A stretch of DNA of 64,000 bases from a bacterium. Its GTDB lineage: Bacteria > UBA10199 > 2-02-FULL-44-16 > JAAZCA01. Below are positions 10,518 to 54,778 of the stretch, one piece after another. Position 1 is the stretch's first letter. Every line of letters starts with the position of its first letter. The notes under the pieces were generated by a model. It did no database searches. It saw nothing but the letters and a program-made list of their open reading frames with translations, and had not been told where the DNA came from. The DNA lies in assembly GCA_963674695.2 (NCBI GenBank), contig CAXXGI010000002.1:512001-576000 (forward strand). Direction: 5' to 3'. The position numbers were made by a program, and so were the translations under genes.

Positions 10518-10566
10518 AAAAGCAATGCCCCCTTTGCTTGGAGGTATGGTCACGTGAGGACACGCA

Positions 10567-11856: not shown

Positions 11857-11879
11857 GGGTGCCTTCCTTGCGGTTGTTC

Positions 11880-11953: not shown

Positions 11954-11994
11954 AGCCGATATGCCAGAACATCCAAAAAAATCGCGTTAATCTA

Positions 11995-23700: not shown

Positions 23701-26700
23701 GGGAGTTACCCCGCAGCCGCCTGAGTGCACCGACGATCGCATGTGTACGCTCGATGCCGAGTGCAGCGATGATGACATCTGTACGAACGACACCTGCGGT
23801 CAGTCCTATCCGGGCTACTGCGACGGTTCGGTTCAGATTCCTCGTTGTGGAAATGACTGCGACGATGAACACCCATGCGGCAATGGCCTCGTCTGCACCG
23901 GCGGCCAGTGCATTCCCACCGATATCCCCTGCGACGCCAGCGCTGACTGCGACGATGGGAATGCCTGCACCACCGATGTCTGTGCTGAAGATGGCACCTG
24001 CGCCTATACCGAGACCACCTGTCCGGAGGGTGAGAGCTGCAACCGGGTCACCGGCCAATGTGCAGTGAGTTGCCCTGTGGGTGAGATCTATCACGAGGCC
24101 GATCATACGTGCAGTCACCTCGTCGATGGCGCGCTCGTCGAATTTTCAGCGACGGCCGGCACGGGTCAGTGGAGCGGCCAGACGACATCAGTCGGCGTTG
24201 GCGCCTATGAAGGCCCGATCGTCGGCATGACCATTCCGGCTGCGCTTACCATTCCCGGCAAGAGCGTCTCCGCTCTCTCCGGCGGCGTGATCGGCAGCGC
24301 GGCGGTGACGATTCCAAACGTGCCCGCAAACATCCGCCTCCTGCTCTCTCGTGAAGAGGTCTTTGAAGAGGATCGCAGTCTCGGTCGCGATGCCGCGCGG
24401 CGCCTGAAGGCCTATGCCTTCGTGACCGACGCAAACGGCCAGCCGGTCGAGGGCTTGACCGACGTTGTTTTTACAAAGAACGGGACGCCGCTTCAAAAGA
24501 CGCAGGGTCAGGATCAGCGCCAGGGCCTCTACTATCAGCTCATCGATGGGATCGATGGGGCGAGCTCCATCGCGGTGAGCGCGGGATCCGTTGCGGCAGC
24601 GCCGCAGGAGGTTGCGTTCGTTTCGGATCCGGATGTTGTGTCGCTTCCGAACGATTGGGATGTGTTGCTCGACCTTCCGCGCCGCACGCTCTATCGGGGC
24701 CAGGAGTTTACGATCCCTGTGCGCGTGAATACCGGTGATCAGTTTGGTGTCATGGCGTTCAACTTCCCCGTCGCCTTCGATGCTGATGCCTTTGAATTCG
24801 TTCGCGTTGAAAAGGGGAGCGGCGGCGCATACCTCATGGACCTGCAGCAGCCGACTGCGCAGGGGGGACAGGTTGTCGTCAACGGGGCCAAGGATCCGCA
24901 AAAGGTTGCGACGCTGGGCGATGATGTGGAACTCATTCGTCTCGTCTTCCGCGTGCAGGATGATGAAGCGACGGTGGTCGCATCCCCACGCCTCTTCACC
25001 GCTACGGCGAATCAGCTCTATTCGATGCAGGTCATCCCGGGCCAGGGCAATCCCAACCATGGAAATGGAAAGGTGATGCAGGTCCTGGATCGCACGGGGA
25101 TTTCGAATGCTGGCGTGGTCGTCGTGGAGCCCGAGGCGTATCTGGGCTTGGCGGCTTATATCGAGGACAACGATTGGGTCGACTATCGGCAGGTCAACCA
25201 GGCACGCGTACCTCCAGCGAGCGTGGTATGGATTAAGGGTGTCAGTACGCGCACGCAGGCGCCGACGGATCTGGTGGCCAACGGCGTTGTTTCGATTGCG
25301 AGTCTCACGGGCGAACCGGAAAACGCGGGCCTCGCCTTTGCGCCGGAAGGTGCCGGCCTGGGTATCAGCCTGGCACCGAATGTCCACAGCTCTCAATCGT
25401 TTGCCGTTCGTCATGGTACATCCGAGATCGAAGTACCCATCAGTGTCACCGCGATTTCGTCGTCCGATCTCCAATTCGAACCGGCATCGAGGAGCATCAC
25501 CCTTGGTCGTCTAGCTGAGGGAATCTATGAGCCGATTCAGATTCGGGCAAAGGCGGAAAAGAATGGAACGACATATGACGTCACCGATGTGATCTCCTGT
25601 CAGGCCACAGGCCCCGCGACGGTTCACGATGGGTGCATCATCGAACCGTCGGCCATCGGTCCGATCTCCCTTGTCCTTGCAGAAGATCAATCATTTGCCC
25701 TCACGGTGGCCGATAGCCCGGTGACGATCGAAGGTGATCTCAATGTCGCGATCGTCGGCTCTCTGGATGTGCAAAAGGTAAACGGCACGGCGGTTGGCGA
25801 TGAACCCATCGAGGTCGCAGGGGGCGTTGCGCGCGTGACGGCAGAAGCGACGAATATCTTCGGCGCGAAGGTTGCCTCTCCCGTTCGCGTGACGGCCAAT
25901 TTCTCGTCCGGTCGCACGGTGGATGTGACGCCGATCGTGGCCGGTTCGCTCGAGCTTCGCGGTCAGGGTGAAGCGGTGCCTTCACTCGCTCCGGTTTCGG
26001 GCGAGCCCGGAATGTTCGAAGTGGTGGCACCAGGGATCAGTTTTATCGATGCCCGCTTCGGGGACGCGATGGGCACGGGCGTGGCGGTGGTCGACCTGGG
26101 TGAGGCGAGCTTCGAGGTGACTCCGATGGCGGCAGCGAGTCACGGGTGCAGTCCCGCTGATGCCGAGGATCGCTCCTGCAAGCTTACTCCTGCAGATGAC
26201 TGGGCACGGCCCATTCGCGACTATGGCGCGACCATCGATTTTACAGCGCAACTTACGTATGAAGCGGATCCGGAGCATCCCTTCGATGTGACGCAGGGCG
26301 CTGCATTCGAGGTCGAGGCGATCGATGGGAATCACATCGTCGTTGAGGCGGTCGCTGGCGTGAATGGTCGCTTTGCGGTCAGCGCCGGTGCCGCGCATGG
26401 CGCGAGTCTTGTCACAGCGAGCTATGCGGGGATGACCTCCTCGTGGATCGTTTTGGTGACGGGGATCGACGAGTTCCGCATCGATCTCTTCGAGGACTTC
26501 GATCCGCTCACGACCGACGATCCGCGTTTCGTTGCATTTACGGGCGATCCCGTCGCGGACGCCGACTTTCAGTTGATCCAGGATATCGATTACCAACGCG
26601 GTCGCGCCAAGGTGATGGGGCGCTGGACCGATGGGTCGTGGATGAATCTGACGCGCGAACCGGGCGCGGTGAATCTGGTTTCACTCACCAGTGAAGTCGT

Positions 26701-29700
26701 TGGCATTCCCATCGCCTGGACGACGGCTGCGGAGTATGTCCTGGTTCACCCGCAGGCCGATGGCAGCGGTGACCTGGTCGTGTCGGTGCCCACGGCACCC
26801 GATGCGCCTACGGTGAGAAAGGCCGTGAGCGCGGGTGGAACGATTGCCGTGAATGCGATCGCGATCCTGCCCGGCGGCGGCGCGAACCGCGAGCCGATCG
26901 ATGCCTTTGACGGAACGATCTCGGCCATCAAAGATGCCTCCGCGGACCTGCGCGTCGGCATCAGGATGGCCGATGACACGCGCTTCCTCGCGGCCAAGGA
27001 CGGTGCACAGACGGTGACAGGCGAGACGCAATCGCTGCTCTCATTCGCCCGGAGCGATATTCCCTTTGCGAATGATTCGGACGATCGCTCCATGGCCGTC
27101 GATGTGACCGAGGGCGCGGGCGATCCGAACGGCGTCGTCGTCCGCGCCAATGGTGCGGCGAATATCACGGTCTCGGCGATCGGCAATGCCACGACGGGTG
27201 AGACGCCCTACGCCATCAACCTTCTGCCTGCAATCGGGGATGTTGACCTGGGTGTCGATATCGTCAATGGCATCGACATCGGTCGTTTCATTCCGGTGTT
27301 GGCCTCGGGGGGAAGAAAGACCGTCGAAGTCTTCGTCAACACGGGTGCGGCGCAGCTCAAAGGATATGATTTTGAGTTCTTCTATGATGCGCGGGTCTTC
27401 AGCATTGAGGAGATCAGACCAAATATTACGGGTGTCTTTACGGGTAACCGTCTCGAACCCGAGGGCGCCACGGGTGATGAATCCGGCCACCTGCTCATCA
27501 ACGGCATCGCCGATCCAGCGGTTGGGCCGGGGCGCGTCAAGATCGCCGAATTCGATATTCGTGCGGTCAAAAGTGACGTCAAGATAACGCACGTGACGGG
27601 ATTTGTGAATGCCCTGAGCGATGTGAGCGGTGCGCCGATAGGTACCGCCGGCCGGCATGCCATCGTTGCGGGCGACGGCTACGTCGATCCGGTCAATGTG
27701 CCGCGCGGCAACCTCGCTCCGGAAGACGATTCCTTCGATATCAACGACATCATCATGGTTGCCGAGTTCGACCAGGGGGCTCGCCCATTCGATGACGAGC
27801 AGCAGGCAGCGGCCGACTATTCGCACTCCGGTCTGCCCATCGACAGCCTCGATGTGGCGAAGGGTTCCGAGCTGCTCGCACTCCTCAATCACTTCGTCGA
27901 TCTTGAAGCGACTGTAAATGAAGACGGAACCGCACGGCTCTCCTTCGCGATCATCAATCGCTATGGCCAGTTTGTGGCGGACGCACAGTATGTGCGCTTG
28001 CGCCTCATCGTAGGTGGTGAAGGGACGTTTGAGATCGTCCAGCCGGCAGAGGACGATGGCACCTATTTGGCGGTGGTTGATGGTGATCGGTATGTCTTGA
28101 ATATTCGAAATGCCGAACCGGGTGCCCGGGCGCAGATCGATGCGATGCTCGAGGTGGTCGATACGAACGATCCCGATCGCGTGACGATCAACGCGATCAA
28201 TTTCGGCGTCGTGCAGTTTACAAATACGCCTGGCTGCGATGTCGATTCCGATTGTCCGCAGGAACCGGAGATAATGGTCTGTATCGACGGCAGTTGTGAA
28301 GAACCAATCCCATGTGAAAACGATGATGAATGTAACGGCGCCGGCTACGATTTCTGCGACGAGATCGAAGGCGTCTGCCGTTCCTGCCCCGAGGGCGAGT
28401 TCTTCGATGGAGAGGCCTGTGTTCCGGGTACGGGCTGCGACACCGATCTCGACTGTCCCGATGATCAGGTCTGTTACGAGGACGCCTGCGTCGTTCCGGT
28501 CGAATGCTCCTCTGCCGAGACCGTGAATGCCCCCTGCACCGATGACAATCCCTGCACCGAGAACGATAAATGCCAGGCGGACAACTCGTGCGTCGGAACG
28601 CCTGTCACCTGCCAAGCTGAAAACGGATGTCAGGTGGCAGCCAATGACGGTGCGTGCGACGAGACGTTCGGGTGTACATACGTCTCCGACTGTCCCGACG
28701 AGAACCAAATCTGCACGCCGGCAGGACAGTGCGAAGAACCGCAGGCCTGCGTGGTCGGTGAGTCCGGTCAGACCTGTCAGCCGGATCCGGAAGACATCTG
28801 CATGGTCGGCGAGTGCCTCGATGATGGAACATGCGGCGAAGCGAGTGCCATGCACGATGGGACCGAATGCGGCGAGAACGCCCTCTGTCAGGGCGGCGAG
28901 TGCCGCGAGCGTTGCACGATCGATGTCGAGTGCGACGACGGCCTCTTCTGCAACGGGACCGAGAGCTGTGCCGATGGTCTGTGCGCGGCGGGCACGCCGG
29001 TCGCGTGCAACGGCGATCAGATCTGCAACGAGATCACCGATGCGTGTGAGGAGCCGATCGATTGTACCGGCGATGATGGCTGTCAGCCCGAGGAAGATGC
29101 GGTTTGTTACGCCGGCAGCTGTGTGGAGATGACGGGCGAACCGCTCTCAGGCCACTGCCAGTTCGATGCAGTTTCGGATGGGACGGAGTGCATGACGGCA
29201 ACGATCGCCGCGGGCCAGTGTCTGGCCGGCAACTGCCGTCCGGTCTGCCAGACGCAGGGCGACTGCCCCGACGAGAGCGATCACTGTCTCGAGGGCGTCT
29301 GCGATGCGTGTCCGGAAGGAACGACCTGGTATCAGACCGGTGCCGATACCGGCGAATGCCGCGTGATCGTCGATGGCTGTACAGCCGATACGATCGGCGC
29401 GGCGTGTGATGATACAAAAATTTGCACCGTGAATGATGTTTGTCAGGCGGACGGCATCACCTGTGCGGGTACAGCTTTCTCTTGTGATGATGGCCTCGGT
29501 TGCACCACGAACAATACCTGCGATCCGACCCTCGGATGTACCTATGTCTCTCTCTGCGATGCGGATGAGCTCTGTCTCGCAACGGGTACTGCACCGAACG
29601 GCCAGTGCGTGCCCACGGTTCTGGATTGTAACGGTCAGGCGATAGGAAGCACCTGCGCGATCGAGGACGATCGCTGCCGCGTCGGCGCATGCGTCGTCGA

Positions 29701-32700
29701 AGGGGAAGCGGCATCCTGCGGCGAGCCCTTCGCGGCGTTTGCGGATGGCACCGCTTGCGGCGAAGGCGCTTACTGCCTGAATGGCGAATGCCGCGAGCGC
29801 TGCACGAGCGCTGCCGAGTGCGACGATGGCCTCTTCTGTAACGGAGCAGAAACATGCGGCGCCGACGGTTTCTGCGCAGCGGGTTCGCCGGCATGTGATG
29901 CGACGACCGAGCGCTGCGATGAGGTGAACGCGCGCTGCGTGAGCCTTGTGTGCGGAAACAACGAAGACTGTGCGGCGAACGAGGAATGCATCGAAGGTCT
30001 CTGCACGCCGCGCGAACTGTCGTGCGAAGGGAACGACGACTGCACGTCATTCAGCGGTCTCTGCGGTATCGGGTTCTGTTCGGAGAGTAATCTCTGCGGC
30101 AGCGATGTCTTCGCCGATGGCACTGCCTGCACGCGCGAGGATGGTCGGCCGGGCACTTGCTCCAGCGGCATCTGCACCATCGGGACGGACTGTGACGCAA
30201 CGAGCTGTCTGATCGACGATGCTTGTGTGGCCGAGAATACTCGCAATCCGGAGAACGACTGCGAGATCTGCACGCCGGATCAAAACGCATTTGGATGGAC
30301 GGTCGTGGACAGCTTCCAGGAATGTACCCTCGACGGTTCAACGGGCGAGTGTCGTGCGGGACAGTGTTTCATCCTGTGCCAGATCGATGAGGATTGCGGC
30401 GAGGGCGTGCTCTGTCGCGGTGGAGTCTGTATCACCGCCGGAACGGCCGAGGGGCAGTTTGTCCAATTCAGCGGCGATGCGAATGAGCACGCCTTCTGGG
30501 CGGGCGATCTGGATGAGGCCAGTGCGACCTACGGCGGCACGATCGTCGGCCCGTTTGCGCAGCGTGCATCTCAGTCGGTCACCACGCGCGTGGTCGACGC
30601 CGCCGGTTCCGGCGATGGCTTCGGGCAGCTCGTCGGCACGAAGTCGGCAGCGCGTGCGCTTCCCGAGACGGCTGCGAGCGCAGAGTTCGTCGTGCCGATC
30701 CAGCAGCTCTTCTCCGATGCACGCCCGGGCGGCGATCCTGAAAACCATGGCCGCACGCTCTACGCCTACATGATGCCGCGCGATGACGAGGGTCGCCCGA
30801 TCGTCGCTTCGCCGACGAATGTGAACTTTGCCCTGAGAAATGGTGATACGAGTATCTCCACGTTGACGAGCGGTACGGTGAGGAATGGCCCTGTTCGCTA
30901 TGCGAGCCAGGCCCTTGCCAACGATCTGCTCCAAAACCAGGAGGGGCAGCGCTCGCTTGTCGCACGTTATAACAGTGCGGATGTCGGTGGCGCGATGGAA
31001 TCGATCACGATCGTTGCCGATCAGGGGCATGCGCCGCTCGCGCCACAAACGATTCTGCTCGACCTGCCGCGCCGCGAACTCGCGCCAAACAAGACCTTCT
31101 GGATTGACGTGCGCGTGAACACCGATCCGGATCTGCTCAGCGGCATCACGCTCTTCGTCTTCGATATCGATTTCACGAATACGCCCTTTGCCTATGCGGG
31201 TGAGGTACAAAAGGGTGCAGATGGTCAGGCTTTTGGCGAACCGATCGTCACGACGGATGCCGATCGTATCAACGTGAAGCTGACACCGCCGTCGATCGTC
31301 GCGGGCGGCGCCGACCAGCTCTACGCGCGTGTGAAGGCGCGTGTGCGCGCGAACGCATCGACGCCGCAGACGGCGGGGATTTCCGGTGCGCTCGTGACCC
31401 TCAAGGATCAGTTGAGTGCTGGCTTCGAAGGGCGCGAGATTCCGGCGGTGGCTGCTAACGGTCACGGCGGGAATACGATGGCCGTCGTCGATTACAGTGC
31501 GATCGTCGGTTCCATCGGGTATCTCTCTCGCGAGTTGCTCATCGATCGCCAGTGGGTGGCCGAAGAAACAGCACAGACATCGACGGCGAATCGCATCGAT
31601 GTCTTCGCCAACGGTGGCAATACGATTTCGCAAGCAGCGGTGCCGATGCAGATCATCTCCGGCGGCGATGTCGTCGAGATCGACGGGAATGCGCTCTCCG
31701 TGAAGGCGAGTGCGGCCAAGGGGATGCACGATGTCGCGGTGAACGTCCTGCGCGACGGTGCGGTTGCGACGGCGAACCTCCCCGCGCGCGTCATGCGCTT
31801 CCCGACCGCCGCGCTCGAACTGTTGGGAGGACCGCGCAAGACGGACCGGCGTTTGGAATGGATCGAGAATAGCAATTTCTACCAGCGCACACAGATTCGC
31901 GTTGGCATGACCGTCGACGGTGTCGAATACGACTTCACCGACAGCATCGATTGTGCCGATATCGAACAGGTGCCGGAGAAACTCGCTCTCGATGCAAACT
32001 GCCATCTGTCGGTTCCGGAAGGGGTGCGCAGCGATGTGATCGCCCTGCGCTATGACGGCGCTGACCTCGGTTCGATCGCGATCGATCAGGAGAGGAGACA
32101 GCGCATTGCGCGCGTTCTGGTCGGATCTGCCGGTTCGATGACGATGCCGAATCCGGCGTCCGACGGGTTCACCATCCCGGCGTCCGTTTCGCTCTCCAAC
32201 GAGTTCCAGGTGCAGGGGCACGAGGGGCCCGTGGCGGTCTGGCTCGTCTATACCGACGGCCAGCAGGCCGAGGTGACCCACGAGGCCGAGCTCGTGATCA
32301 AAGACGGCGATCAGAGCGAGTTGAATCCTTTCCGCCTCGATGCGGAGAACAAACGGGTGACGGTTTCCGAGAACGGCTGGGCCGCGGTGCGCGCAAGGCT
32401 CGATGGGGGTATGGGTTTTGGCATGCTCGTCGGAAACCTCGGCGAGGCCTCGCTCGTGGTGAAGGTGGGCGACACTGTTGTCGGCGTCGACTCCACCGTT
32501 GACCTCGCGCGTTCTCAGTCCGATCTGGCGCATGCCGCTGCGGGCATCCCCTATGAGCTGCCGATCACGGTCTCGACCTGTTACGGAACGAACTGTTCCG
32601 GTGGTGGCTCGAACGTGACGACCGTGGCGACCTATGATGTTCAATCGGGTGGTGAAATCGCGCGCGTCGATGCGAGCGGCGATGCGCGTCTGTTGCGCAT

Positions 32701-35700
32701 CAATGAGAGTTCCTTTGTCGATCAACAGCTTGCCGCCGGTGGCGAGGGCGCCTGCCAGGTCGTGACGGTTTCAGTCGGCGGCTTTGAGTCGGTTGACTTC
32801 ACCGTCTGCGGGCGCACGATGCAGGCGGCGGCCGTTCAGTTTACCGAAGACTTCGATCCAAATGCGAACTATCCGGAAGCGTTCCGGCCGATCGCGGTGG
32901 GTGAGCGTGAGCCGACCTCCGGTCCTTCACGTGCCATCACCGGTGAGACGCGCGTCTTTGACGATGCCTTCGGCCTGGTGCAAGCGCCGACCGGATTCCA
33001 GCGCGGTCGCGCCAAGGTCTGGGGGCGCTTCGAGACCTTCGATAATGCGAATCTCTGGAAGAACCTCCTCGATCATCTGACGGATCGAGAACTCATCCTG
33101 AATGGTTCGGAAGCGATCACATTTGGTCAGAAGGTGGGAACTGCTGCCGATGCCTATCGCGTCATTACGCCGCAGGGGGAATGTCCCAGTTGCTCGGTCG
33201 CGTTGAAGCTCGAAGACAATGCGAAGGTGGCACGCATCTTTGACGATGCGGGTGCCTTCAGCGTGTCGACGACGAACGAGGCGGTCGATCGCCTCGCCCT
33301 CTTCGGCGCCTCCGCCAACATCCGTAATCACCTGGGGACATCCTTCGGACAGGGTGCGATGGAGGAGACCTTCGACGGTTCGCTGGGCGCGGTAAAGGGG
33401 ACGGCGGGAAGCATGCGCGTCCTGGCGCGCACGGCCGGCGATGACAGTCGCTTCATCGCCGTGGAAGGACCCGCCCAGCGCTATGCCGACCTCGTGACGG
33501 TCGCGATGCAGCGCCAGCCGTTGCCCGCGGATGCGTCATCCGCAACGGCGCGTGCCTTCAGTGCCTCCTGGGCGGCCGAGCCTGTCTGTGCAGGATCAGG
33601 CATGCAGGAGATCTGTGAGAGCCGCTCCGGCGAACTGAATGCCCAGCAAAACGGCGCGGTGGGACTTGCGGCGAAACTGACCGATGATGACACGATGACG
33701 AGCGAGCCGTATGCCCTGGCCGTCAACCTCCTTCCCGCATATCGCGACGTCGACGTCGGCGGATACGAGGACTATGTGCAGCAGCCCGGACGGTTCATTC
33801 GCGCCCTGAATGCCGGCGATCAGCAGCCGATCGATGTCCTGATCAATATCGGCGCGGGTAATGAACTCTGTACCTATCAGATGATGCTTCAGTGGTTGCC
33901 GGGTGCGCTCTTTTCCTACGTCACGGGTTCCGGCGAAGAGTTCCTCGGCAGTCCCGTCGGTGCCGGCGGCATCACGCCGCAGCCGGGTGCAGATCCGAAG
34001 GTCGTGAAGATCGGCGGTACCAATCCGAACGGCTGCATCGCGGCCGATCCGACTACAGGCCTCGTGCGTGTGGCGCGCTTTGTCCTCGAAGCGGCAAGCG
34101 GTGGAACGGCCGAGCTTTCCGGATCGCTTGAACTCCTGCAGGGGCGCGCGAGCGGTAGTGGCGGCGAGATCACCGATCTCTGCGCGGCATCGGGCGACTG
34201 CAGCGCGTTTACGCCGGTGGCGCCGCATGTCATCGTCGCCGGCGCGGGTTTCATCGACCCGGCTATGGGTGCAGCGTGTTCACGGCCGGACGATTGGCCC
34301 TGCGACGAGAGCCTCTGCGTGCAGGGTCGCTGTGCCGGTCAGCCCGACGGCGTGCCGTTCATCTTCGATACGGCGACGGATGCCTCCTACTTCCGTGGCG
34401 ATGCCAACAAGGATGGCCTCATCGACCTGAGCGATTCCTCTGCGGTGCTGCTGAATCCGGATGCGATCACGCCGGTGGCGGTGGGCGATCTGACTTACGA
34501 CGGTACGGTCACCGATTACGATGGCGTCAAGATCGCGCAGACCTTCCTGGGACGCTCCTTCATTCCGTATGCACGCCAGGCGCAGGACATCGATGGTAAA
34601 CGCCGCATCTCCGTCCTCCTCAAGGGGGTCGATGCAGCGGCGACGCCGAATGTGGAAGACGCGACGGTCTCGATGCGCTTCCCGGATGGTGCGGTCACCA
34701 TTCCCGAAGAGGTCTCCTGTGAGGATGGTTTCTGCCAAGCGACGAACACTTCCGGTTCCATCTTCTCCATCGATGTGACGCCGACCGATCCGACCGCCTC
34801 GATCGCCTACGATCTCCGGGTCCAAGTCTATGACAGCGGCGAGGATCTCGTCTTCGCCGAGACCTATCGGGGATTTATGACCTCCTGCACCACGGACGCC
34901 CAGTGTGCCTCCGGCCAGGTCTGTGATCCGAGCGGGATCTGTGTCGACTCCTGTCTCGATGCTGAGGGCGATGCCGACGATATGCGCTGTGCAGCATCTG
35001 TCGCCTGTGCGGTCGGCAGCTGTACGGAGGAGACGGGTGTCTGTTCCTACGACTATAATGATGCAGACTGCGACGATGGCAACGACTGTACGAGTGACAC
35101 CTGCGATGCGATCGACGGCTGTACATATGCGAGCGTGCCGATTGGGAGTGCGTGTGATGAGGATGCTGGCATTTGCGTTGCAGATGATTTCTGTCAGCGC
35201 TTCTGTAGCGCTGAAAATCCATGCCCGGAGGGCCAGGAATGTGTGAACGGTAGCTGCGTGCCGCCGCTGAATTGTCAGACCATCGACGATGCGAGCTGTG
35301 ACGCCCTCGACGACGGATTGTGTCTGGCCGGCGCCTGCGATGTCGAAGCGGGAACCTGCGAGGCGACGCCTGTTGCGAACGAGACCGCGTGCGGCGCGCA
35401 GGGGCGTTGCGTCGACGGCGTCTGCGAGACCGGTTGTGACGATGATGACCAGTGTCCGCGCGGCCACTGCGATGACGAGACCGGCCAGTGCGTCGCTGGT
35501 TGTGAAGCGCCCACGCCGTTTGAGTGCCCCAACGGCGTCTGTGCGGCCGATGCTGACAGCTGCCCGTGTGCAGACAGTGCCGACTGTGACGACGGTGACC
35601 TCTGTACGACCGATACCTGCGTCAGCGGTACCTGTTCGATGACGCCCAAGGACTGTGCCGCTGATCTCGATCTGACCTCGACCGACTGTCAGGAGGCCAT

Positions 35701-41700: not shown

Positions 41701-44700
41701 GGCCTCGACCTGGAACAGCGCGGATGAAGACTACAGCGGCGAGGTCCTCGCCGTGAGTGCGCCCGGCGGCGAGGCGGTCGACTTTACCGCGACGCTCATG
41801 CGGATGAACGGCACGCCGTTTGCGCAGGCGATCCAGGCGAGCGAGGATTTCGATCCCGCGACGCCATATGCGATCAAGCTCTTCCTGACGCGCGAGGCGA
41901 TCTTCGAGGATGCGCGCATCCGGGATGCCAATAAGTCGCACAGCGTTTCGGCCTTTGCCTTCGTCACCGACGCGCGAGGGCGTCCGGTGAACGCAGATGC
42001 CGGCGTGCAGTTTCGGATTGGAAGCGACACTTGGTCTCCAGGGGTCAACGGCAAGTACAGCGGTGTCGATGGCCTCTATGCGACGACGCTCGAGGTGAAC
42101 GCGACGGAGAACACGATGATCTCCGCGCGCTTTTGGGACGTGGGATTTCCGGAAGCGTCGAAGGATGTCGCCTATCAGGCCGATCCCGACGTGACGGATC
42201 TTGCGACCGTCGGCGACATGGTCCTCGAACTGCCGCGTCGACCCATCTTCCCGGGGCAGGATTTCTGGACGACGATCGTGGCCAACACGAATGTGACTGA
42301 TTCCCAGGATCAGTTGATCCATGCGATTAAGGTGAAGGTCATCTATGACGCCGCATCCTATGAATACCGCGCGGTTGATCGCGCCAATAACGGGAAACAG
42401 TTCGGCACGGTGAATGCGGGCGTGAATGATCTGGATGCTGGACGCAAGGAGATCACGCTCTTTGCGACCTTTGATTCGAACTCCGGCTCTGCAGCGCCGA
42501 TGCTCGCCGATCGCGCGGAGCTGCTCGATTTGAACTTCAAGTTCATCGGTGGCAATCCGGGCACGATCGAGGTGAAGCCCGTCGAGCTCCTCTATAAAAA
42601 GGATGGCACGTTCAAGAATATCGTTGATCTCAATGCGAATCCCGCAACTTCAATCTATCCGGCATCTGGACTTAACGTCGCGACCGACGATGTGGTCGGC
42701 TTCGCCGCCGCGATCGCTGACACCGACTGGGTCGATCGCTCCGGCATCGGGGGAACTGCCGATCCGCGCACGATCGACGCGCATCTCATTCGCGCGTATA
42801 CCTTTGTGGATGAAGCCCTGACCGTTCAGGTTCAAGCACCGGCGCCGTTTGTCGCTGATGGGAAAAGTGTGTCGCTTTCGGATGCGGCGCCGGCATTCAG
42901 CAAGGGAACGATCACCGTCTCCTCGAGCGACCTCGGAAATGTCTCCTATCCGATTGAGCTCTCCGCCGATCGGATCTTCCGCGCATCCTGCGCGCTCACC
43001 TTCGAGGGGTTCAATCCCCCGTTCGTGTTGGGGAGGGTGACGCAGACGAGTTTCCAGCGTGCTCAGGGGCGTGTGCTGTGTAAGGACGGCGATCGCGTCG
43101 TCTACGACCTCACGCATGAAGTGCAGTGCCAAAAGGTCTCCGGTGATGCCAATGTCCACAACGAGCTGCTCGCAAGCCGTTGCCTCGTTGCGCCGACCTC
43201 TCTCGGTGAGCTGAGGATCCAAGCGGTCCGCGATGAAGCGCCCGTTGGCGAAGTGATCGAATTCAAAGTGAGCAGCGATCAGGTTGCGGTCGATGAACTC
43301 CTCATCGGTGTTGCCGGCTCGGTCACCGCGCCGAAAAAGCCTGACGAGATAAAGCTCGCTGTTTCGGGGATCCAGGGTGCGGATACCGCGCGCGCGGTTT
43401 CGGCCTCTGCCTTCAACCGCTTCACCGCGATGGAGAACGGGCCGATCGTGGTACTCGCGCGTTATGCGGGCGGCACGACCGCCGACACGACCGCCGATGT
43501 GACCGATCTGGTCCTCGATTCCCTGAGCTTCATGGGTGGGGCCGTGGCGCCGGTGGAAGAGGGTGGTGCGCGCAAGCCTGAGGTGCGCGTCCTCGAGCCG
43601 GGCATCACGACGATCACCGGGAGTTATGCGGGCAAAGAGGGCAAGGGACATGCGATCGTCGCCTTCCCGGGTGAGCCGAAAGTTCACGTCGCGCCGACGG
43701 GAACGGTCCTGCTTTCTCCTTCAAACGATGATTGGGCGAAAAAGCTGGGCAACATCCCGACCGAGCAGGCTATGGTCGTCGATGTCTTCTATGGTGATGA
43801 TCACGCGAACGCCGATGCCATCTATGCAAAGGCGGCGGTGGCGACCTATACGAACGGCACACCCGAGGCGGAGCGCGTCGTCGAGGTGGTCGGCGGCGTC
43901 GTGCGCCCGATTGCGGGGCGTGGCATGGGTTCGGATGAGATCTGTATCACCGTGCCAGGATTTGATTTTGCTCCCACCTGCGTGAAATTTACCGTCACCG
44001 GCATCGATGGCCTCGAGGTCAAGACCTACGAGGACTTCGACCCGAAGGATACCTATCCCGAGGGGTTCAAGCCCGCTGCGGGCGACAAGCCCCAGGTCGA
44101 GCAGAATGCCTTCGGTTTCGTCGAGGGGATCGACGTCTATCAGCAGGGCCGCCTGCGCGTGCAGGGCCACTGGTATCACAATGACACCTGGATCTGGCTC
44201 ACTGACATCACGAACTTCTCCAAGCTCGACTCTTCGCTCCTGCTCGAGACCACGGTGGGCGGAACGATGCGCACCGATGTCGTGGGGATCGCTCCAGCGC
44301 CGGCCACAGGTCGCGATTACTTCGGACTGACACCGCTGATGCCGGCTGAGGCGCGCATCGTCGCGCGCCCCGCAGCCGGGGCGAGCACGGCGGGCATCGC
44401 GGGGGTGCGCATCATCACTATCGCGGATGATCCGGTCGATATCGATCTCCTCGAGATCCTATCGACGAGCTTCTCAACTGCAGGCGCGGGAGTGAGTCGC
44501 AAGAGCGTTTCCGATACGCTCATCGGCGGTGGCGCGACGGCGTTTGCCGGGACGATCGGCGGCGAGCGCGCAAGCTCCCGTTCGCTCACCGTCGGTGGAA
44601 GATTTGCAAACGGCGGCGCGCGCGCAACCCTCGTGGCAAACGGCGTGCAGCAGGTCAGCGATGAGGGCGCTCCTCTGGTGACGATGGGGATGAACGCGAC

Positions 44701-47700
44701 GGGCTATGAGAATCGCAACGCCGCAACGTCAGTCGGTGAGAACGGCACGATCGTCGCCGGCATCCACGACAACGGTGCGGTGATGGTGACGCTAGATCTG
44801 AATCGTGACACGGCGAGCGCATTTGCCGCGACCGCACGCCCCTATGCCATCAACCTCACGCCGAAGGTCGGCGATGTCGATGTGGGCGAGATCACGGGCC
44901 GATTCGTCCCGGTGCTCACGGGTTCCCATGAGGTCGAGCTGCGCATCAACGCGGGGAATCTGCACCTGAATAACTACGAGATCACCGTGACCTATGATCG
45001 TCGCGTCATCGATGTGGCGGGCGGCGCGGGCAACTATGCCATCACCAATCTTCTGGCGAATGATTCGAATATCACCGGACAGGAATTCAACGCCAAGGTC
45101 GAGGTTGCCGATGCCCCGCCGGATGACACCACCGGGCGCATCAATCTCTTCTGGACGGTGACAGCGGGTACGAGCCCCACGGGCGTGATTCCGGTGGCGA
45201 AGATCACCTTCGCTCCTGCGACATCGAAGAGCAGTGGCGATTCGATCACGAACCTCTCCGGTATCATCTTCGCCATCAGCGGTAAGGCCGATATGGGTGG
45301 CACGAGCACGCCCATCGGCGGGACAAACGAGCGCACCTTCGATGCGGGCACGGGGCTCGTCGATCCGCCGACCGGAAACGTGAACGAGGATGAAGCCGGT
45401 GTTTTCAACGGCTTCGACACGGCCAGGATGCGCGAATATATGGTCGAAACGATCGGTGCGGATGATCTTGATCTTTCCGAGGCCGACTTCGACTACAGCC
45501 ACGAGGTGCGGGGCGCTGACGCGACGGTGGAAGCCGGCGATATCGCCGGGTCGGATGTCGTCCAGGCCGAGCAGCTCCTCGTGGGCAACTACTACTTCAT
45601 CGAACCGGTCATCGCGCAGGTGAATGGTTTGAGCGCGAAGCTCTCGGTCGTCTTCCGCGACAAGAAGCGCGAGCCGGTCACTGCCTCCATCCGTCCGGAA
45701 ATCGCGGTTGCAGCGCCAGCCGGTGCGGCGCTCTTCCAGGATGAATCGCTCTTGCAGCCGCTGGTTGCTGGTGAAGCGGGATATGAAATACTCGTGAAGC
45801 CGACCACTGGCCGCGATGCCTTCACCGCCTGGATGCAGCTCCCGGCGGGTTCGACGGAGACGACCTTTACCGTCCGCCTCTTCGTTCTCGACCAGAACAA
45901 TGCGAGCATTGTTCTCAACGACAGCACCGCGACCTTCATGCGCGCGCTGGCGCCGAGCTGTCAGAGCGGTGCCGATTGCGAAGAGGGCTTAAGCTGCGTC
46001 GACGGCGCCTGCATCGACGACTGTCTCGATGACGGCGATTGCGACGGGCTGCTCTGCGATACCGACACCGGCGTCTGCATCGATCCGAACGAGTGCACGA
46101 CCGACGAGGACTGCCCGGATACGGAATACAACGATCGCTACTGCGATCAGCAGACGAACCAGTGTGCGGCCTGTCTCGGCGGGTACCATTGGGATGGAAA
46201 TTCCTGCGAAGCGGGCGAAGAATGTGATGATGAGAATCCCTGCGATGAGGGCTTCATCTGTGCCGACGGCGAGTGTCGTCCGCAGTGCAACTTCTCCATC
46301 GATTGCCCCGATCTCAACCAGATCTGCGTCGACGGCGCCTGCATCGTGCCCGAGTGCGACGAGGGGTATGCCTGGGACGGCATGAGCTGCATCTGCGTCG
46401 CCGATTCCTGTGGCGGCAACGAGTGTCTCCCGCCGCGTCTGCTCGACGCGATGAGCGTCTGCGCCTGCCCGGGCGAGATGCTCTATGACCCGAGCGACGC
46501 CACCTGTATCGATGCGGATGAATGCCTCGAACCGCGCGCGGCCGATCCTGCCAGCGGCATCTGCACCTGTGCGGATGGGCTGCTCTGGACGGGAACCGAA
46601 TGCGTCGACGAGGATGAGGTCGAGTGCGGAATGGGTGCCCATTACGATGACGTCGCACGCGCCTGTGCCTGCGATTCCGGTCAGCAGGAGATGGACGAGA
46701 TCGGCGACTGCGTCGATCGCTGCGACGACGACGACTTCTGGGATGCCGTCGCGCAGGCCTGCGTCGAATGGGAATGCGCCGAGCCGTTGCGCAACTGGTG
46801 GGATCCGCCTGCGTGTTGTGCACAGTACACCGCCTACAATCCGGAGTATGACGCTGAGACGATGCCGGTTGAAGATCAGTGCACGGGTGAAGGCGAAGGG
46901 TGCGAGAATGATACAGATCGCCAGATTCCAAATACGGATCTCTGCTGCGCGTTGGATGCCATCTACGATGATGTCGTCGGCAGCTGTATGGATCGCTGTG
47001 ACGAGGGGCATGTCTGGAACGTCGATACCCAGAGCTGCGATCGCCTGAGCTGCAGCACCGAGGATCGCTGCCCGAGCGGCGGCACCTGCACGATCGAGAC
47101 GAGCCTGTGCGAAGGGGATGGAATCGAACCCTACGACTGCCTGCCCGACATGAGCTGCCCCGAGGGGTATCTCTGTGAAAACGGCGAGTGCCGTGGCGGC
47201 GGCGACGATCCGTGCGTGACCGACGAGGACTGCGCTGATGCCTTCACCTGTGTCGCCGGCGTCTGCAGCGAGTGCGATGCCAACGGCCAGTGTCCGAATG
47301 TGGCCTGCACATTGGCGACCGATTGCCCGGCGGGATTCGAGGCCGCGGTGCTTTCCTGTTCTGAGAGTGTCTGCAGCAACTGCGACACCCAAGGTGTCTG
47401 CATGCCGCAGCCGTTTGTCTGCGAGGCCAACCGCTGCGTTCCGACCGGCGGTGACAACGGCGATGAATGCGATACCGATGATGACTGCATCGAGCCGGGG
47501 CTCGTCTGCCGCGATGGTGTCTGCAGGCGTGACAATTTTGAATGCATCGATAACTGCGAATACGTCCCGGGCGCGAAGGTGGAGTTCGGCACGAATCCAG
47601 AGGATGCAACCGTCTGGACGCAGGATACGAAGGACGTTTGGCTTGCAAGCGGCGTTGATGCCGATCGCGGCAAATACACCAGCCACATCACGGCGCTCAC

Positions 47701-50700
47701 GCATCCGCTCAAAGTCGATGCCAAGGCGCAGGTGCGCGGGCGCAAGAGCGAGAGCCTCTATGACATCCTGACCGATCCGCTCGCGATCCTGACGGATTTT
47801 GCAGCGGAGCAGCCGAACGTGCGCCTCATCCTCAACCGGCGTGCGGTCTTTGAAGAGGTCGATTCGACCGCGGGGGCGAAGGGTCGGCGCATCAAGGCCT
47901 ATGCCTTCGTGCGCGATGCGCAGAATCGTCCGGCCGGTCCCGACCTGATGGACGTGAAGTTCCTCCTCGTCGATGGCGTGACGAACCTGGAGGTCGACGC
48001 TGCTGCTGTGAGCGGAATGCGCGGCCTCTACGGCGCGACGATAACGGCCCCACCGGGCGTCTTCGTCGCAGGCGAAGAGCATGAAGCCCAGGTGCAGGTG
48101 AAGGTGAACGGTGCTCCGATCTTAGCGAATGAGACCGATCCGTTGGCGGTTCCGATTGTGGTCCATCCCGATCCGGCGCGCGCGCAGCTGCTGGCGAACG
48201 TCGGCGACGTGCTCGTCGACCTGCCGCGGCGCGAGATCGTGGGCAGCGAGAGCTTTATCCTGCCGATCCTGGTCAACTCCGGAACGCAGGACCTGATGGG
48301 GATCGAGTTTACCCTCAGCTATGATCAGGCGCGTTTCGAGTTCCTCTCCGGCGGGCGTGGCGCCGGTGTCCCTGCAGGGGCATCGATCATCACGGATCCC
48401 GCAAATCCGGGGCAGGCAGACGGCAGCGTGCGGGTGAGCATCTTCGTTCCCGAGAGTGCCGGACGACGTGCCGGTGCAGCGCTTGAGGTCTTCCGGATGG
48501 CGTTTCGTCCGCGGGGCATCACCGGCCAGGGCGGCGATTTCCGTGCGAGCGTCACCGCGCTGCGCACGACCGGCGATTATCCGATCGGCCCCGACCGGGC
48601 GCGTGATGCGCAGGTCTTCTCGCGCGCAGGTCTCGGCGTTCAAGGGGATGTCGATGTGGTGGTGCGTGCGATCCAGGGGTTTGCGGCCTCTGCCGTGATG
48701 GATGATCTCAATGACTTCACCGCCATCGGCGGCCCTGCGGCGGCAACGCTGGTGCGCATGCCGATCGTATATAATGATGAGGCTGCGCCGATCGATGCAG
48801 CGGCAACCGCCAGCGCGGTGCTAACCCCACTGGGTTCCATGCAGACGATCGCCGCCGAGGGGCGCGTGCAGCTGCGTCCTGGGGCGATGCCGACGCCGAG
48901 CGATGGCGTGCGCGTCTCGTTCTCGGGTGCGGCCGGTTGCGCCGGCGGCACGAATGCTTGCAGCGCCATCACGATTCCGTTCACGGTTGCAAAACTCGCG
49001 ACCGATGCTCCGGAGACCTTCTTCGTCGAGCCGCGGGCACAGACCGTGACGCTCTCCGCCATCAGCGGGACGACGGCCTTCCGTCCGCTTTCCCTCCGGG
49101 CCGTCTGGAACCGCCCGATGGGCGACGCGGATTCGGTGCCGTTCGATGTGACGCACATGCTCACCTGCTCGAGCGATTCGGGCCAGATGATCCCCCCGAT
49201 CGCCTCGATGCCCTGTTACTTCACGGCGCAGTCGACGGGAAACTTCGAGGTGACGATTCGCGGCGGCGATTTCGCCAAGACGTTCAACGTCGAGGTCATT
49301 GCATCGGCCGATCCGGTCAGCGAGATCTTCGTCGCCGTCCCCGGCATCTTCAACCCACAGCCTGAAGGGTTGGTGGGTGCAGTGAATGAACAGGGCGTGG
49401 CGCCGGCCGAGGCCCTGCTCACCAACCGCCTCAAGAAGATCGGTTCGCGCGCACCGGTTGCGGTCTGGGCGCACATCAAGGAGGAGTGGAGCTTGGTGAC
49501 GCCGCTCGTCGCGGCGGATAGTCTGACGGTCACGCAGGGCGACGGTTCGGTCCTCACCCTCGATCCGCAAACCGGCGAGGTGATCGTCCAGGGTCCGGGG
49601 CAGGCGATCGTCACGGCGAGCTTTGGCGAGATGGCTGATGGCAGCCCCGCCCGAGGAACCGGAACGGTCGATGTCCTCTTCGACGGCGTGGGCGAGGTGA
49701 GCGTCGGCGTGCCGACGATGCTGGCGCGCTCGCAAGGTGATCTGGCACAACGCGTCCTTGGTCTCCCGACCTCAAACACGATGCAGGTCGATGTGAACTG
49801 GGGGGCGAACGGGAGCCTACGCAATGTCCAGGGGCAGGAATGGGTGACGTTTGAAAACCTCGACGGCGCATCCGAGCAGGTGATCACGGTCAATGTCGAC
49901 GGGAAATACAGCGTGCGCGAGGATTTTCCGACGGGGCTCAATCTTCAGGATCCGAACGACTGGTGCGATGACATCCAGGTCACGCTCACCGGTCGCGGCG
50001 AGATGGACGGGGCTGCGGGTGAGAACGCCCAGGTCATCACCGACGGAAACGGCGACAACATCGGCGTGACGATCACCGAGCGCGTCTGCGTGGTGACCCT
50101 CGAGTCGCTCGGTGTCGCTACGAACGAGGACTTCGCCGCACGAAGCGACGATCCGCAGGCGTATCAGGGAACAGTTGCCGACAGTCTCTTCACGCCGATC
50201 TTCACGGCGAGCGATGGATCGATCTTCTATCAGCGCGCTCGTGTGGTCGTGACGGCGAACTGGACGGGTGGGCAGGATGCCGTGCGGCTCACGCCCACAA
50301 ATGCGGTCGTCAATGCGGTGCTCGGCGTGGATTCCGGTTTGGGATCGGTCGATGTCGGCGACGCCATCTATCGATTTGTGCCGAGTGGGACGACGGGGAT
50401 CGGAAACGTCCGAGCCAATGTACCCAAACAGGTTGCGCCCGACTTTGACGACCTCATCTATATCGATGCGATCTTCGGCGAACACCCGATCGAGGTGAAG
50501 GCCGATCCTGCGGGCGATGGAACGATGGCGCAGGTCGAGATCCTCGGCTGGCGCGTCGAGCGCACGCAGGGCTATACGCCCGCGCGGACGTCAGCGGGGG
50601 TGGATAGCAGCAACGTGCCGATCGCGTTTGCCGGGACGATCGGTGCCGGCGGTGCGGTGGCAAAGGATGCCGTTCGCCTGCGCCTGGTCGGAACGATGGC

Positions 50701-53167: not shown

Positions 53168-53240
53168 ACGGTGAACGGTGAACGGCATAGTATATCATAT
53201 TTGCTGTTTACGGTTTACCGCTTACTGTTCACCGTTTACG
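53164..53240. repeat. Inverted heptamer element (GTGAACG)3 - AT-rich loop - degenerate (NGTTYAC)n containing the stop codons of both convergent genes
   Basis: The giant gene TGA (53165-53167) is in the first unit. The ybhB-like TGA (53229-53231) is in the inverted arm. Confidence 0.85.
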
Positions 53241-53756
53241 TCTATACGTTCCCATCATCTCTGTCTGCGCCAGAATGCGATCTTTCATCGCGTGTTTGAG
53301 CATTCCCTTGTTGGCTTTCTTGGGGAGTGCGAGCAGGCGATCGAGCGCATAGAGCTTGAAGTAGTAACGGTGTTTTCCGCCCGGCGGGCAGGGGCCGCTA
53401 TAGCCGTATTTGCGGGAATCGTTCAAGCCCTGCTCGCTTTCATCCGGAAGTTTTTCCGTCGGTGCGATCTTCTCGGCAAGCCCGGTTGCGGTTGCCGGGA
53501 TATTCCAGATGACCCAGTGCACCCAGACGCCCATCGGCGCGTCCGGATCGTCGGCGATGAGCGCAAAACTCTTTGTCTTTTTTGGCGCACCGCTCCAGGT
53601 AAACGCCGGCGAGATGTTTGCCCCGTCGCAGGTATACTGCGCCGGAATCGGCGCGCCGTTCGTAAATGCGGGGCTCGTGAGTTCCAAGGCCATGGCATCT
53701 CCTCCCATGATAGCGGTGATGAGAACGATCGTTGCGACGATAAGGGTCCGTTTCAT
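53229..53756 (-). CDS. YbhB/YbcL family (PEBP/Raf kinase inhibitor-like) protein, exported
   Basis: Signal peptide, YTCDGANISP, DDPDAP, WVHWVIWNIP, YSGPCPPGGKHRYYF. Confidence 0.95.
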   Translation of the reverse strand: MKRTLIVATIVLITAIMGGDAMALELTSPAFTNGAPIPAQYTCDGANISPAFTWSGAPKKTKSFALIADDPDAPMGVWVHWVIWNIPATATGLAEKIAPTEKLPDESEQGLNDSRKYGYSGPCPPGGKHRYYFKLYALDRLLALPKKANKGMLKHAMKDRILAQTEMMGTYRRKR

Positions 53757-53771
53757 AGATTCCCTCCGAGG

Positions 53772-54620: not shown

Positions 54621-54629
54621 AAGGACTCG

Positions 54630-54761: not shown

Positions 54762-54778
54762 TAAATCCATGGTCGGTA

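Follow-up and report, generated by a model that had tools for sequence, protein, structure and literature searches.

What does a bacterium do with ten cohesin-like and five dockerin-like domains on a single polypeptide chain? The question is raised by a giant open reading frame (ORF) in a stretch of 64,000 nucleotides (nt) of bacterial DNA (the window), which spans positions 512,001 to 576,000 of contig CAXXGI010000002.1 (assembly GCA_963674695.2; GTDB lineage UBA10199); coordinates below are positions in the window. Cohesin-dockerin pairs are among the strongest protein links and are used in protein engineering; their non-cellulosomal roles are mostly untested. The frame is:

14741..53167, plus strand: giant ORF, one uninterrupted frame of 12,808 amino acids (aa) with a single terminal stop, 38.4 kb

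On the evidence set out below the product is very probably an extracellular adhesin or matrix protein that carries true cohesin and dockerin folds. The fuller description that we favor, a secreted, non-cellulosomal, calcium-binding and disulfide-rich adhesin or matrix protein, is also probable, at a lower level of confidence.

Five super-modules of one design

The first-pass annotation of this DNA had placed the ten cohesin-like and five dockerin-like domains between positions 24122 and 52192 (aa 3128-12484), in five diverged modules of identical domain order. Repeats were mapped by comparing 200-aa tiles to the whole protein (BLASTP) and by aligning the copies with MAFFT. The result is five collinear super-modules, at about aa 3101-5220, 5221-7126, 7127-8949, 8950-10933 and 10934-12808, for which we use the following limits:

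24113..30415, plus strand: super-module M1 (aa 3125-5225), with a beta/immunoglobulin (Ig) region, cohesin A, Ig array, cohesin B, dockerin-like domain, Ig domain and Cys-rich stalk
30416..36085, plus strand: super-module M2 (aa 5226-7115), in which some 45 inserted aa, Cys among them, part cohesin B from dockerin
36086..41611, plus strand: super-module M3 (aa 7116-8957)
41612..47554, plus strand: super-module M4 (aa 8958-10938)
47555..53164, plus strand: super-module M5 (aa 10939-12808), which takes in the C-terminal Cys-rich tail

In all five copies a beta/Ig-like region is followed by cohesin A, Ig-like domains with DVT motifs, cohesin B, a dockerin-like domain and a further Ig-like domain; the proposed order held throughout. 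Hidden Markov models (HMMs) built from the five copies locate ten cohesin-like and five dockerin-like domains at aa 3297-12356 (nt 24629-51808), in agreement with the earlier count, and the span first given agrees with our own module limits (aa 3125-12458) to within a few residues; the same models find none in the first 3,100 aa.

Cohesins thus stand to dockerins at two to one on a single chain, and, as the first-pass annotation had remarked, no carbohydrate-active enzyme accompanies them: scans of pieces covering the whole ORF gave no catalytic Pfam family at E <= 0.01. Nor did Pfam and NCBIfam reveal a carbohydrate-binding module (CBM), S-layer homology (SLH) or sortase-signal family in the ORF. 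The NCBIfam scan found no family in M3 or M5, and phmmer searches of the PDB with single sequences (module pieces of 4,693 and 4,985 aa) gave 0 matches at E <= 0.1.

Averaged over pairs of copies, sequence identity is 25% for cohesin A, 29% for cohesin B, 24% for the mid region, 24% for the N-terminal beta region and 21% for the terminal Ig domain. The dockerins, at 22-23% against 21-29% for the other parts, are not specially diverged, which weakens the earlier suggestion that strong differences among them reflect orthogonal pairing. Because module orthologues exist in other genera (see below), we attribute their divergence to old duplication.

The insertion in M2 (approximately 34271-34384) is found in no other of the five modules. 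A unit in a related genome (G012) carries a similar insertion at the same point, and this module type therefore seems to be conserved.

The cohesin-like domains

The ten domains, with the evidence for each, are:

24629..25057, plus strand: cohesin A of M1 (aa 3297-3439); Pfam Cohesin E 2.2e-12, 47.8 bits; own HMM
31046..31462, plus strand: cohesin A of M2 (aa 5436-5574); alignment, own HMM
36725..37192, plus strand: cohesin A of M3 (aa 7329-7484); Pfam Cohesin 21.9 bits, under the cut-off; own HMM
42185..42646, plus strand: cohesin A of M4 (aa 9149-9302); alignment, own HMM
48152..48607, plus strand: cohesin A of M5 (aa 11138-11289); Pfam Cohesin E 6.9e-4; own HMM
27218..27706, plus strand: cohesin B of M1 (aa 4160-4322); alignment, profile against the PDB, own HMM
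33725..34270, plus strand: cohesin B of M2 (aa 6329-6510); alignment, own HMM
39542..40027, plus strand: cohesin B of M3 (aa 8268-8429); Pfam Cohesin E 0.0028; beta-sandwich in an AlphaFold2 (AF2) model; top PDB fold matches are cohesins
44852..45376, plus strand: cohesin B of M4 (aa 10038-10212); alignment, own HMM
50996..51583, plus strand: cohesin B of M5 (aa 12086-12281); alignment, own HMM

The curated cut-off of Pfam Cohesin (PF00963) is 24.1 bits. It is passed by cohesin A of M1, at 47.8 bits when the ORF is scanned and 30.8 bits when the genome is scanned; weaker matches (18.3-21.9 bits) come from cohesins A and B of M3 and cohesin A of M5. Among 12 module copies from this and related genomes, eight match the family at E <= 0.1. 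All ten domains are tied together by our own HMMs and by the alignment of the cohesin A profile to the cohesin B profile (hhalign, 93.9% probability, E 1.6e-7). When the profiles were compared to the PDB, cohesin B found the ScaB cohesin dyad (3l8q, E 0.006) and cohesin A gave a weak match to a solved cohesin (5nrm_A, E 0.037).

An AF2 model of the M3 cohesin B-dockerin-Ig unit, for which 18 aligned units from our genome and four related ones were supplied, has two beta-sandwiches with three helices between them (predicted local distance difference test, pLDDT, 74.2; predicted template modeling score, pTM, 0.51). The PDB chains whose folds best match its cohesin B are cohesins: 2w1n (E 6.6e-8) and 1anu (TMt 0.68, root-mean-square deviation 3.4), along with 5nrk_A (TMt 0.68) and 2vo8 (0.67). 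Cohesin A lies within the all-beta stretch of a model of M1 (see below); the cohesin fold match itself comes from cohesin B of M3. Taken with the profiles, the models support the reading of the cohesin-like domains as cohesin folds. Pfam, profile-to-PDB comparison, AF2 and fold search all favor cohesin and dockerin.

The first-pass annotation also took the two partners to sit normally on separate proteins. This premise does not stand: scaffoldins that carry both cohesins and a dockerin on one chain are well known, Clostridium thermocellum CipA being an example, and the fold search itself returned 4fl4_C and 3kcp_A, entries for C. thermocellum scaffoldin/multimodular components that we take to be CipA Coh-X-Doc fragments.

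The dockerin-like domains

The five domains are:

27695..27940, plus strand: dockerin-like domain of M1 (aa 4319-4400); both Ca loops degenerate
34385..34609, plus strand: dockerin-like domain of M2 (aa 6549-6623); 12-residue Ca-loop pattern kept in both loops
40016..40255, plus strand: dockerin of M3 (aa 8426-8505); first loop canonical, second with E at position 3; Pfam Dockerin_1; three-helix model
45362..45643, plus strand: dockerin-like domain of M4 (aa 10208-10301); loops degenerate, with insertions
51569..51808, plus strand: dockerin-like domain of M5 (aa 12277-12356); Ca-loop pattern kept in both loops

The dockerin of M3 alone passes the curated cut-off of Pfam Dockerin_1 (PF00404, 22.9 bits), and does so narrowly (23.1 bits, falling to 17.8 bits inside a 2,500-aa piece). 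The profile of the five copies finds 4fl4_A first in the PDB (E 5e-6), and the majority of the 30 chains listed bear dockerins. In the M3 model the helices occupy residues 173-184, 194-197 and 207-217. The possibility that the domains are thrombospondin-type repeats was considered and rejected; the profile is specific for dockerins and the model is helical.

A dockerin Ca loop has 12 residues with acidic or amide residues at positions 1, 3, 5 and 12, and a helix follows each of the two loops. A scan for this pattern recovered both loops of M2, both loops of M5 and the first loop of M3, and none in M1 or M4; the ligand pattern is intact or nearly so in six of the ten loops. By loop pattern, the duplicated EF-hand pair claimed for every module is intact in M2 and M5, nearly so in M3, and without regular Ca loops in M1 and M4. 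Given those irregular loops, at most three of the five dockerins may be functional.

Which cohesin could the dockerins bind?

Genome-wide, Pfam Dockerin_1 and Cohesin match no ORF other than the giant frame, which is likewise the only match when 40,797 six-frame pieces of at least 40 aa are scanned at E <= 1 with HMMs of our own for the dockerin and for cohesins A and B. It follows that any cohesin-dockerin binding must involve the giant protein itself or another organism. The proposal that spare cohesins dock other dockerin-tagged proteins finds no such protein in the genome, and a role as scaffoldin for cargo made by the same cell is very unlikely.

Within the chain the position of the dockerin is informative. 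In M1, M3, M4 and M5 its first loop starts 3-6 residues past the conserved "DP" that ends cohesin B. Among the 150 best database proteins, cohesin B-type domains are followed by a dockerin in 92 of 203 cases and cohesin A-type domains in two of 110; 76 of the 170 dockerin matches in these proteins have no cohesin just before them. The short linker in four of the five modules and the recurrence of the adjacency in relatives suggest a fixed didomain, which fits the arrangement at least as well as a free cross-linker does.

Complex prediction was carried out with cohesin A, cohesin B and the dockerin (as partner) of M3, supplied as alignments together with two Ca ions. Its verdict was "weak support": the ipSAE scores of the three runs were 0.00, 0.44 and 0.59 (median 0.44), while the best of three controls scored 0.00; contact agreement was at least 0% and partner pLDDT at least 64. 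In a control that kept cohesin A and the dockerin and replaced cohesin B, the score was lost. In calibration, 58 of 80 solved complexes came up to the mark, as did two of 110 mismatched pairs, counts that are approximate here given the use of our own alignments and a riding ligand; at 0.60 or under lie just seven of the 80 solved complexes, together with both of the mismatches that passed. Cohesin-dockerin complexes have, moreover, already been solved, and a pass may reflect memory or likeness rather than binding. We regard the result as a small push towards a dockerin that sits on cohesin B. The same partner is pointed to by the direct and recurrent fusion, by the near absence of cohesin A-dockerin neighbors and by the control.

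Resemblance to TMEM132/coherin

The ectodomain of TMEM132 consists of a conserved region, a cohesin and three bacterial immunoglobulin-like (BIG) domains, and the same order is found in cadherin-family proteins of choanoflagellates and sponges (Sanchez-Pulido & Ponting 2017, PMC6030884). No dockerin is detectable in vertebrates, and the partner of the TMEM132 cohesin is an open question (PMC6030884). The first half of the super-module recalls this arrangement, most clearly in one domain:

25127..25453, plus strand: first Ig-like domain past cohesin A of M1 (aa 3463-3571), with a remote likeness to the fourth domain of TMEM132

Aligned by hhalign to a TMEM132-4th-like alignment (67 sequences, seeded on the Pfam-verified fourth domain of a Prymnesium protein), this domain matches at 94% (E 1.3e-7) over 96 columns. 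In an Atlas look-alike search with the first half of M1, the first named match was a cluster carrying Ig_TMEM132_4th (0.94, 193 shared features), followed by clusters of Big_2 and NUP210-type Ig domains; we treat this as a lead only.

A one-module relative (P0115) that matches the first-half profile at positions 61-797 passes the Pfam cut-offs for Ig_TMEM132_4th (37.9 bits), Ig_TMEM132_5th (35.8 bits) and Cohesin, and has a weak Dockerin_1 match as well. A protein of the choanoflagellate Salpingoeca rosetta carries TMEM132 fourth (E 4.7e-42) and fifth (E 6.6e-19) domains and a cohesin that matches our cohesin B profile end to end (E 2.7e-20).

The giant ORF itself stays below the threshold of the family. 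Its best score against Ig_TMEM132_4th (PF16070, cut-off 27 bits) is 17.3 bits, at aa ~2401-2477 and so outside the modules; the fourth-domain model matches one of 12 module copies (E 0.011); TMEM132_3rd (PF23039) and Ig_TMEM132_5th (PF23486) have no match in the ORF at E <= 1; and the C-terminal transmembrane helix and cytoplasmic motifs typical of TMEM132 were not found in it. With no Pfam cut-off reached and no membrane anchor, membership is denied. As judged from sequence, the link to TMEM132 is a remote resemblance of cassette and order.

Relatives and age of the module

A profile of the cohesin B-dockerin-Ig unit finds units in four of the 40 nearest relatives and, at E <= 1e-5, in seven of the 92 other genomes of the phylum that were searched; assemblies in the phylum are fragmented and giant genes may be lost from them. 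The phylum is small, with 93 genomes of 1.1-4.6 Mb available, and the bacterium described here is an uncultured member of it. The units of related genomes align with ours throughout, and related open frames that carry them reach 9,037, 9,627 and 12,096 aa. A search of 1.84 billion representative proteins gave 425 matches at E <= 1e-3, a number that falls to 98 at E <= 1e-10 and to 12 at E <= 1e-30; the majority of the top matches have lengths of 4,000-8,000 aa and 2-6 units. Named relatives include two entries labeled "MAG: hypothetical protein" (MAG, metagenome-assembled genome), from a Deltaproteobacteria bacterium and a Myxococcales bacterium, and a "cohesin domain-containing protein [bacterium]".

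A profile of the first half of the module (A6) matches 45 of 160 fetched proteins, 23 of them over at least 700 positions. With 23 of 160 relatives carrying a near-full first half, it is the whole super-module, beyond the didomain, that is conserved as a unit. In a tree of 28 module first halves (a quick IQ-TREE search, with long branches), M1 groups with a module of another protein (P0001_m1, support 100), M3 with a module of genome G008 (99) and M4 with modules of both (94). Since individual modules have their own orthologues in other genera, the duplications are, on this quick tree, older than these genera.

Three eukaryotic relatives of 3,200-7,300 aa, from Prymnesium parvum (P0012, a haptophyte), Salpingoeca rosetta (P0062) and Cymbomonas tetramitiformis (P0142, a green alga), combine Ig domains of the TMEM132 fourth and fifth types with a cohesin of the B type. 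Our own HMM detects a weak dockerin-like segment after the cohesin in the Salpingoeca and Cymbomonas proteins and none in the Prymnesium protein, which has a Pfam Dockerin_1 match under the cut-off only. The Cymbomonas protein runs through a cohesin A-type domain, a TMEM132-4th-like domain, cohesin B and a dockerin-like domain, an order similar to that of the module, of which the Salpingoeca and Prymnesium proteins have parts. The haptophyte-type proteins (P0012, P0004 and similar) are not matched by A6 at E <= 1e-3; what they have in common with the giant protein is the cohesin B unit only.

Ig-like arrays, Cys-rich stalks and the N-terminal part

The remaining features of the chain are:

28241..30415, plus strand: Cys-rich stalk after M1 (aa 4501-5225), 13-16 Cys per 100 aa, internally duplicated
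34892-36085, 40643-41611, 45965-47554 and 52115-53164, plus strand: further Cys-rich stalks like that of M1
19118..19480, plus strand: thrombospondin type-3 (TSP3) Ca-binding repeats (aa 1460-1580), outside the five modules; COMP 3fby_A, E 2.2e-14
16289-16357, plus strand: Pfam TSP_3 match (aa 517-539), N-terminal part

An AF2 model of residues 1-1036 of M1, a span that opens with the N-terminal beta region and closes with the mid region, is almost all beta (pLDDT 71.9, pTM 0.51). By fold it matches proteins with Ig-like domains in series, among them a nuclear-pore chain (E 4.7e-19), titin, contactins, DSCAM, S-layer proteins and GhpA. Pfam gives a weak Big_1 or Invasin_D3 match in the region preceding cohesin A and nothing significant for the mid regions alone (715-797 aa).

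The stalks as a whole contain 13-17 Cys per 100 aa and match cysteine-rich Pfam families (ADAMTS, Adt-1, DUF7107, Dicty_CTDC) weakly. The stalk of M1 is internally duplicated (aa ~4540-4830 against 4850-5145, 37-46% identical), which makes M1 the longest module.

In the N-terminal part, aa 1460-1580 also resemble thrombospondin-2 in the PDB search, and a sub-threshold Omp28-related NCBIfam match coincides with the thrombospondin-type repeats. A lone Ig-like domain at 21932-22171 (aa ~2398-2477) is the source of the weak 17.3-bit Ig_TMEM132_4th score and matches positions 505-548 of the module profile (independent E-value 0.0015). The stretch from aa 2000 to 2900 is poor in Cys and has no family match.

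The gene, its export and its neighborhood

The length of the frame and contigs from two samples indicate that the giant ORF is a real gene. In run X1 one contig covers 33200-53190 with 0 differences, and may itself be the source of this DNA; in run X3, which comes from another sample of the same study, contigs cover 30 of 30 bins and 87 of 88 pieces are at least 99% alike. An assembly artefact was considered and rejected: the region is spanned by contigs from two samples, and module copies sharing just ~21-29% mean identity pose no risk of repeat collapse.

Ala, Gly, Asp, Val and Thr abound in the predicted protein, which contains 556 cysteines. Its sole strongly hydrophobic 19-residue window (aa 14-32) is followed by an Ala-rich cleavage-like site, and for these two reasons aa 14-32 are read as a probable signal peptide. 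At the other end, the C-terminal residues (53124-53164) comprise a Gly run and a CxCxxC-like motif; a hydrophobic tail is absent. The heptamer TGAACGG occurs three times in tandem at 53165-53185, starting with the stop codon of the giant gene.

The upstream neighbors encode a deoxynucleoside kinase, PanB and PanC; those downstream lie on the minus strand and encode a PEBP-like protein, KsgA and TsaD (these three assigned by eye), then a YbgF/CpoB-like tetratricopeptide repeat (TPR) protein and an OmpA/Pal-like protein. Two plus-strand ORFs (53178-54113 and 54629-55558) were considered as partners and rejected; they match no family, overlap the minus-strand PEBP-like, KsgA and TsaD ORFs, and look spurious. 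The genome is 3.03 Mb in three contigs with a completeness score of 100%. The best matches of PanB are MAGs labeled "bacterium" or "Deltaproteobacteria bacterium" (63-67%), followed mainly by MAGs and genomes labeled Myxococcota (~51-58%).

Adhesin, lattice, fiber or scaffold?

The explanation that we favor can be drawn as follows. What we read as a signal peptide precedes some 3,100 aa with thrombospondin-type Ca-binding repeats, after which come five copies of the module, each about 1,900 aa long. Each module would form a rod of Ig-like beta-sandwich domains in two halves: an adhesion cassette, in which cohesin A is joined to Ig domains remotely like domain 4 of TMEM132, and a fixed didomain of cohesin B fused to dockerin, with an Ig domain behind it. 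Disulfide-rich, EGF-like stalks would separate successive modules. Once exported, the protein would act outside the cell in Ca-dependent adhesion or in building a matrix. The dockerin would pair with the neighboring cohesin B, either as a clasp in cis that stiffens the rod or by a swap between chains, leaving cohesin A as a free, outward-facing site for a ligand other than a dockerin of this organism. A precedent for the cis clasp is the repeating structural ladder of dockerin-like helices packed with a beta-sandwich that is predicted for Omnitrophota giant proteins in the part of the preprint dealing with them (bioRxiv 10.1101/2023.11.21.568195). That the dockerin binds cohesin B at all is nearly an even question, leaning slightly towards no; that such pairing builds a mesh between chains is improbable.

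Several observations weigh against this explanation. Most of the ten cohesins fall under the Pfam cut-off when scanned singly, and the dockerins of M1 and M4, interrupted by insertions, are without regular 12-residue Ca loops. Both AF2 models have a pTM of 0.51, too low to fix the relative placement of domains. A dockerin was detected after just 92 of 203 cohesin B-type domains, partly a matter of HMM sensitivity; in the complex prediction a score of 0.00 came from one run out of three, and no contacts were shared among runs. As to location, a hydrophobicity scan of the giant ORF found no later membrane segment (there is one weak segment inside a beta domain) and an NCBIfam scan of it no sorting-signal family, and thus no cell anchor was found; the genes adjoining it are housekeeping genes, with none for secretion or anchoring.

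The first-pass annotation raised another possibility: a self-assembling lattice, in which dockerins bind cohesins A or B of other chains and form a Ca-dependent mesh or sheath round the cell. Two cohesins per dockerin on one chain, in a genome that encodes no other partner, are what such a lattice would use, and the complex prediction (median 0.44 against 0.00 for the best control) lends it weak support. The modules have also been kept distinct, each with its own orthologues (supports of 100 and 99), as different specificities would have it; plain inheritance, however, predicts the same orthology equally well, and the dockerins, diverged to the same extent as other module parts, show no special sign of evolving specificity. 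The tie of 3-6 residues that holds the dockerin to cohesin B in four of the five modules also counts against it. Replacing cohesin B alone abolished the score, which argues for the neighbor and not for a free choice among ten sockets, and two of the dockerins have degenerate loops. We consider the lattice unlikely.

About as doubtful is a purely structural protein, whose cohesin- and dockerin-like domains would be blocks of a rigid, Ca-stabilized fiber that has lost recognition and adheres through other surfaces. The sub-threshold cohesins and the degenerate loops of M1 and M4 are what such a loss would leave behind, as is the complex run that scored 0.00, and two parallels exist: the TMEM132 cohesin, which has no detectable dockerin in vertebrates (PMC6030884), and the Omnitrophota ladder. 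Yet the Ca-ligand pattern is retained, fully or almost so, in six of the ten loops; relatives, whose units align throughout, commonly have a dockerin next to cohesin B; and the other two complex runs reached 0.44 and 0.59 when three controls stayed at 0.00.

The protein could alternatively be an inter-species adhesin or scaffold whose cohesins, dockerins or both bind modules or surface structures of a partner, host or prey. Outside the chain there is no self-encoded partner, and both kinds of association have been proposed elsewhere. In the sections of PMC10553843 concerned with them, cohesin/dockerin proteins of syntrophic sulfate reducers, the partners of anaerobic methanotrophic archaea (ANME), are proposed to serve adhesion, and such proteins, expressed by both partners of methane-oxidizing consortia, are proposed to act in partnership; the part of the Omnitrophota preprint on giant proteins with dockerin and TSP3 domains proposes attachment to host or prey (bioRxiv 10.1101/2023.11.21.568195). 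Genomes of the phylum are small (1.1-4.6 Mb) and the unit is patchily distributed (seven of 92 other genomes). A small genome is, however, no evidence of dependence, this one scoring 100% complete; the patchiness may partly reflect fragmented assemblies that have lost giant genes; and the present data identify no partner organism. We give this alternative little weight, somewhat less than the two before it. A cellulosome-type scaffoldin that gathers the dockerin-tagged enzymes of its own cell, which the multiple cohesins per chain might bring to mind, is close to refuted by the lack of any other dockerin in the genome (Pfam; own HMMs at E <= 1), of any CBM, SLH or enzyme family in the giant ORF, and of any but housekeeping genes beside it.

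A wider conjecture, which we think improbable, is that the module is itself an ancient adhesion cassette of bacteria and protists, of which the ectodomain of animal TMEM132/coherin would be a reduced version, the ligand of the cohesin being the dockerin of the same chain, with five old, individually conserved pairs zipping chains in register into a Ca-dependent extracellular lattice. If true, the ligand of the orphan TMEM132 cohesin could be approached through the bacterial modules as a tractable model. The protein is in any case a closed system, since the genome has cohesins (ten) and dockerins (five) nowhere but on this chain, and it offers a set of old, diverged candidate pairs suited to work on orthogonality.

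Comparison with known systems

Non-cellulosomal cohesin and dockerin modules, scaffoldins with both modules and giant proteins that combine dockerin with TSP3 are already known; Peer et al. (2009, FEMS Microbiol Lett) reportedly described cohesin and dockerin modules outside cellulolytic organisms. For the super-module as a whole, a TMEM132-like cohesin-Ig cassette with a cohesin-dockerin didomain, repeated in giant bacterial proteins and in some protists, we found no published description, although the supplementary taxon and adhesin tables of PMC6030884 and PMC10553843 may bear on it. In approximately 8.4 million full texts "TMEM132" and "dockerin" are mentioned together in PMC6030884 only, whose supplementary taxa may include bacterial homologues.

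With the non-cellulosomal proteins the giant ORF shares both folds in a setting that shows no sign of a cellulosome. The cohesin modules of Clostridium perfringens glycoside hydrolases (2w1n, 2jh2, 2vo8) belong here, and the GH84C cohesin-fibronectin type III (FN3) structure 2w1n is the best fold match of the cohesin B model. What sets the giant protein apart is that it alone carries all ten cohesins and all five dockerins, that the dockerin is fused directly to a cohesin, and that enzyme domains are absent.

Cellulosomal scaffoldins resemble it in having several cohesins and a dockerin per polypeptide, and its dockerin profile matches type I dockerins. Scaffoldins have many cohesins and one terminal dockerin, whereas the giant protein repeats the pairing five times and interposes Ig arrays and Cys-rich stalks; a CBM, enzyme-borne dockerins elsewhere in the genome and an anchoring protein are all missing.

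The Omnitrophota "Dockerin-type" proteins, as characterized in the portion of West-Roberts et al. that concerns them, are likewise giant and extracellular, with dockerin-like domains and TSP3 Ca-binding repeats, and likewise repeat units of a beta-sandwich and dockerin-like helices. They differ in reaching 30,000 aa or more and in having C-terminal membrane anchors and SecA-like and enzyme-like domains, features not found here (for the membrane anchor and SecA-like family, by Pfam and a hydrophobicity scan of the giant ORF). Their sandwiches are CBM35-like, whereas those of the giant protein's units are cohesins.

With TMEM132/coherin, finally, the likeness lies in the shared order of a beta region, a cohesin and Ig/BIG-like domains, from which the giant protein departs by a second cohesin with its dockerin. 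The giant protein and its relatives thereby join a TMEM132/coherin-like order to a dockerin, a combination unknown for the vertebrate family.

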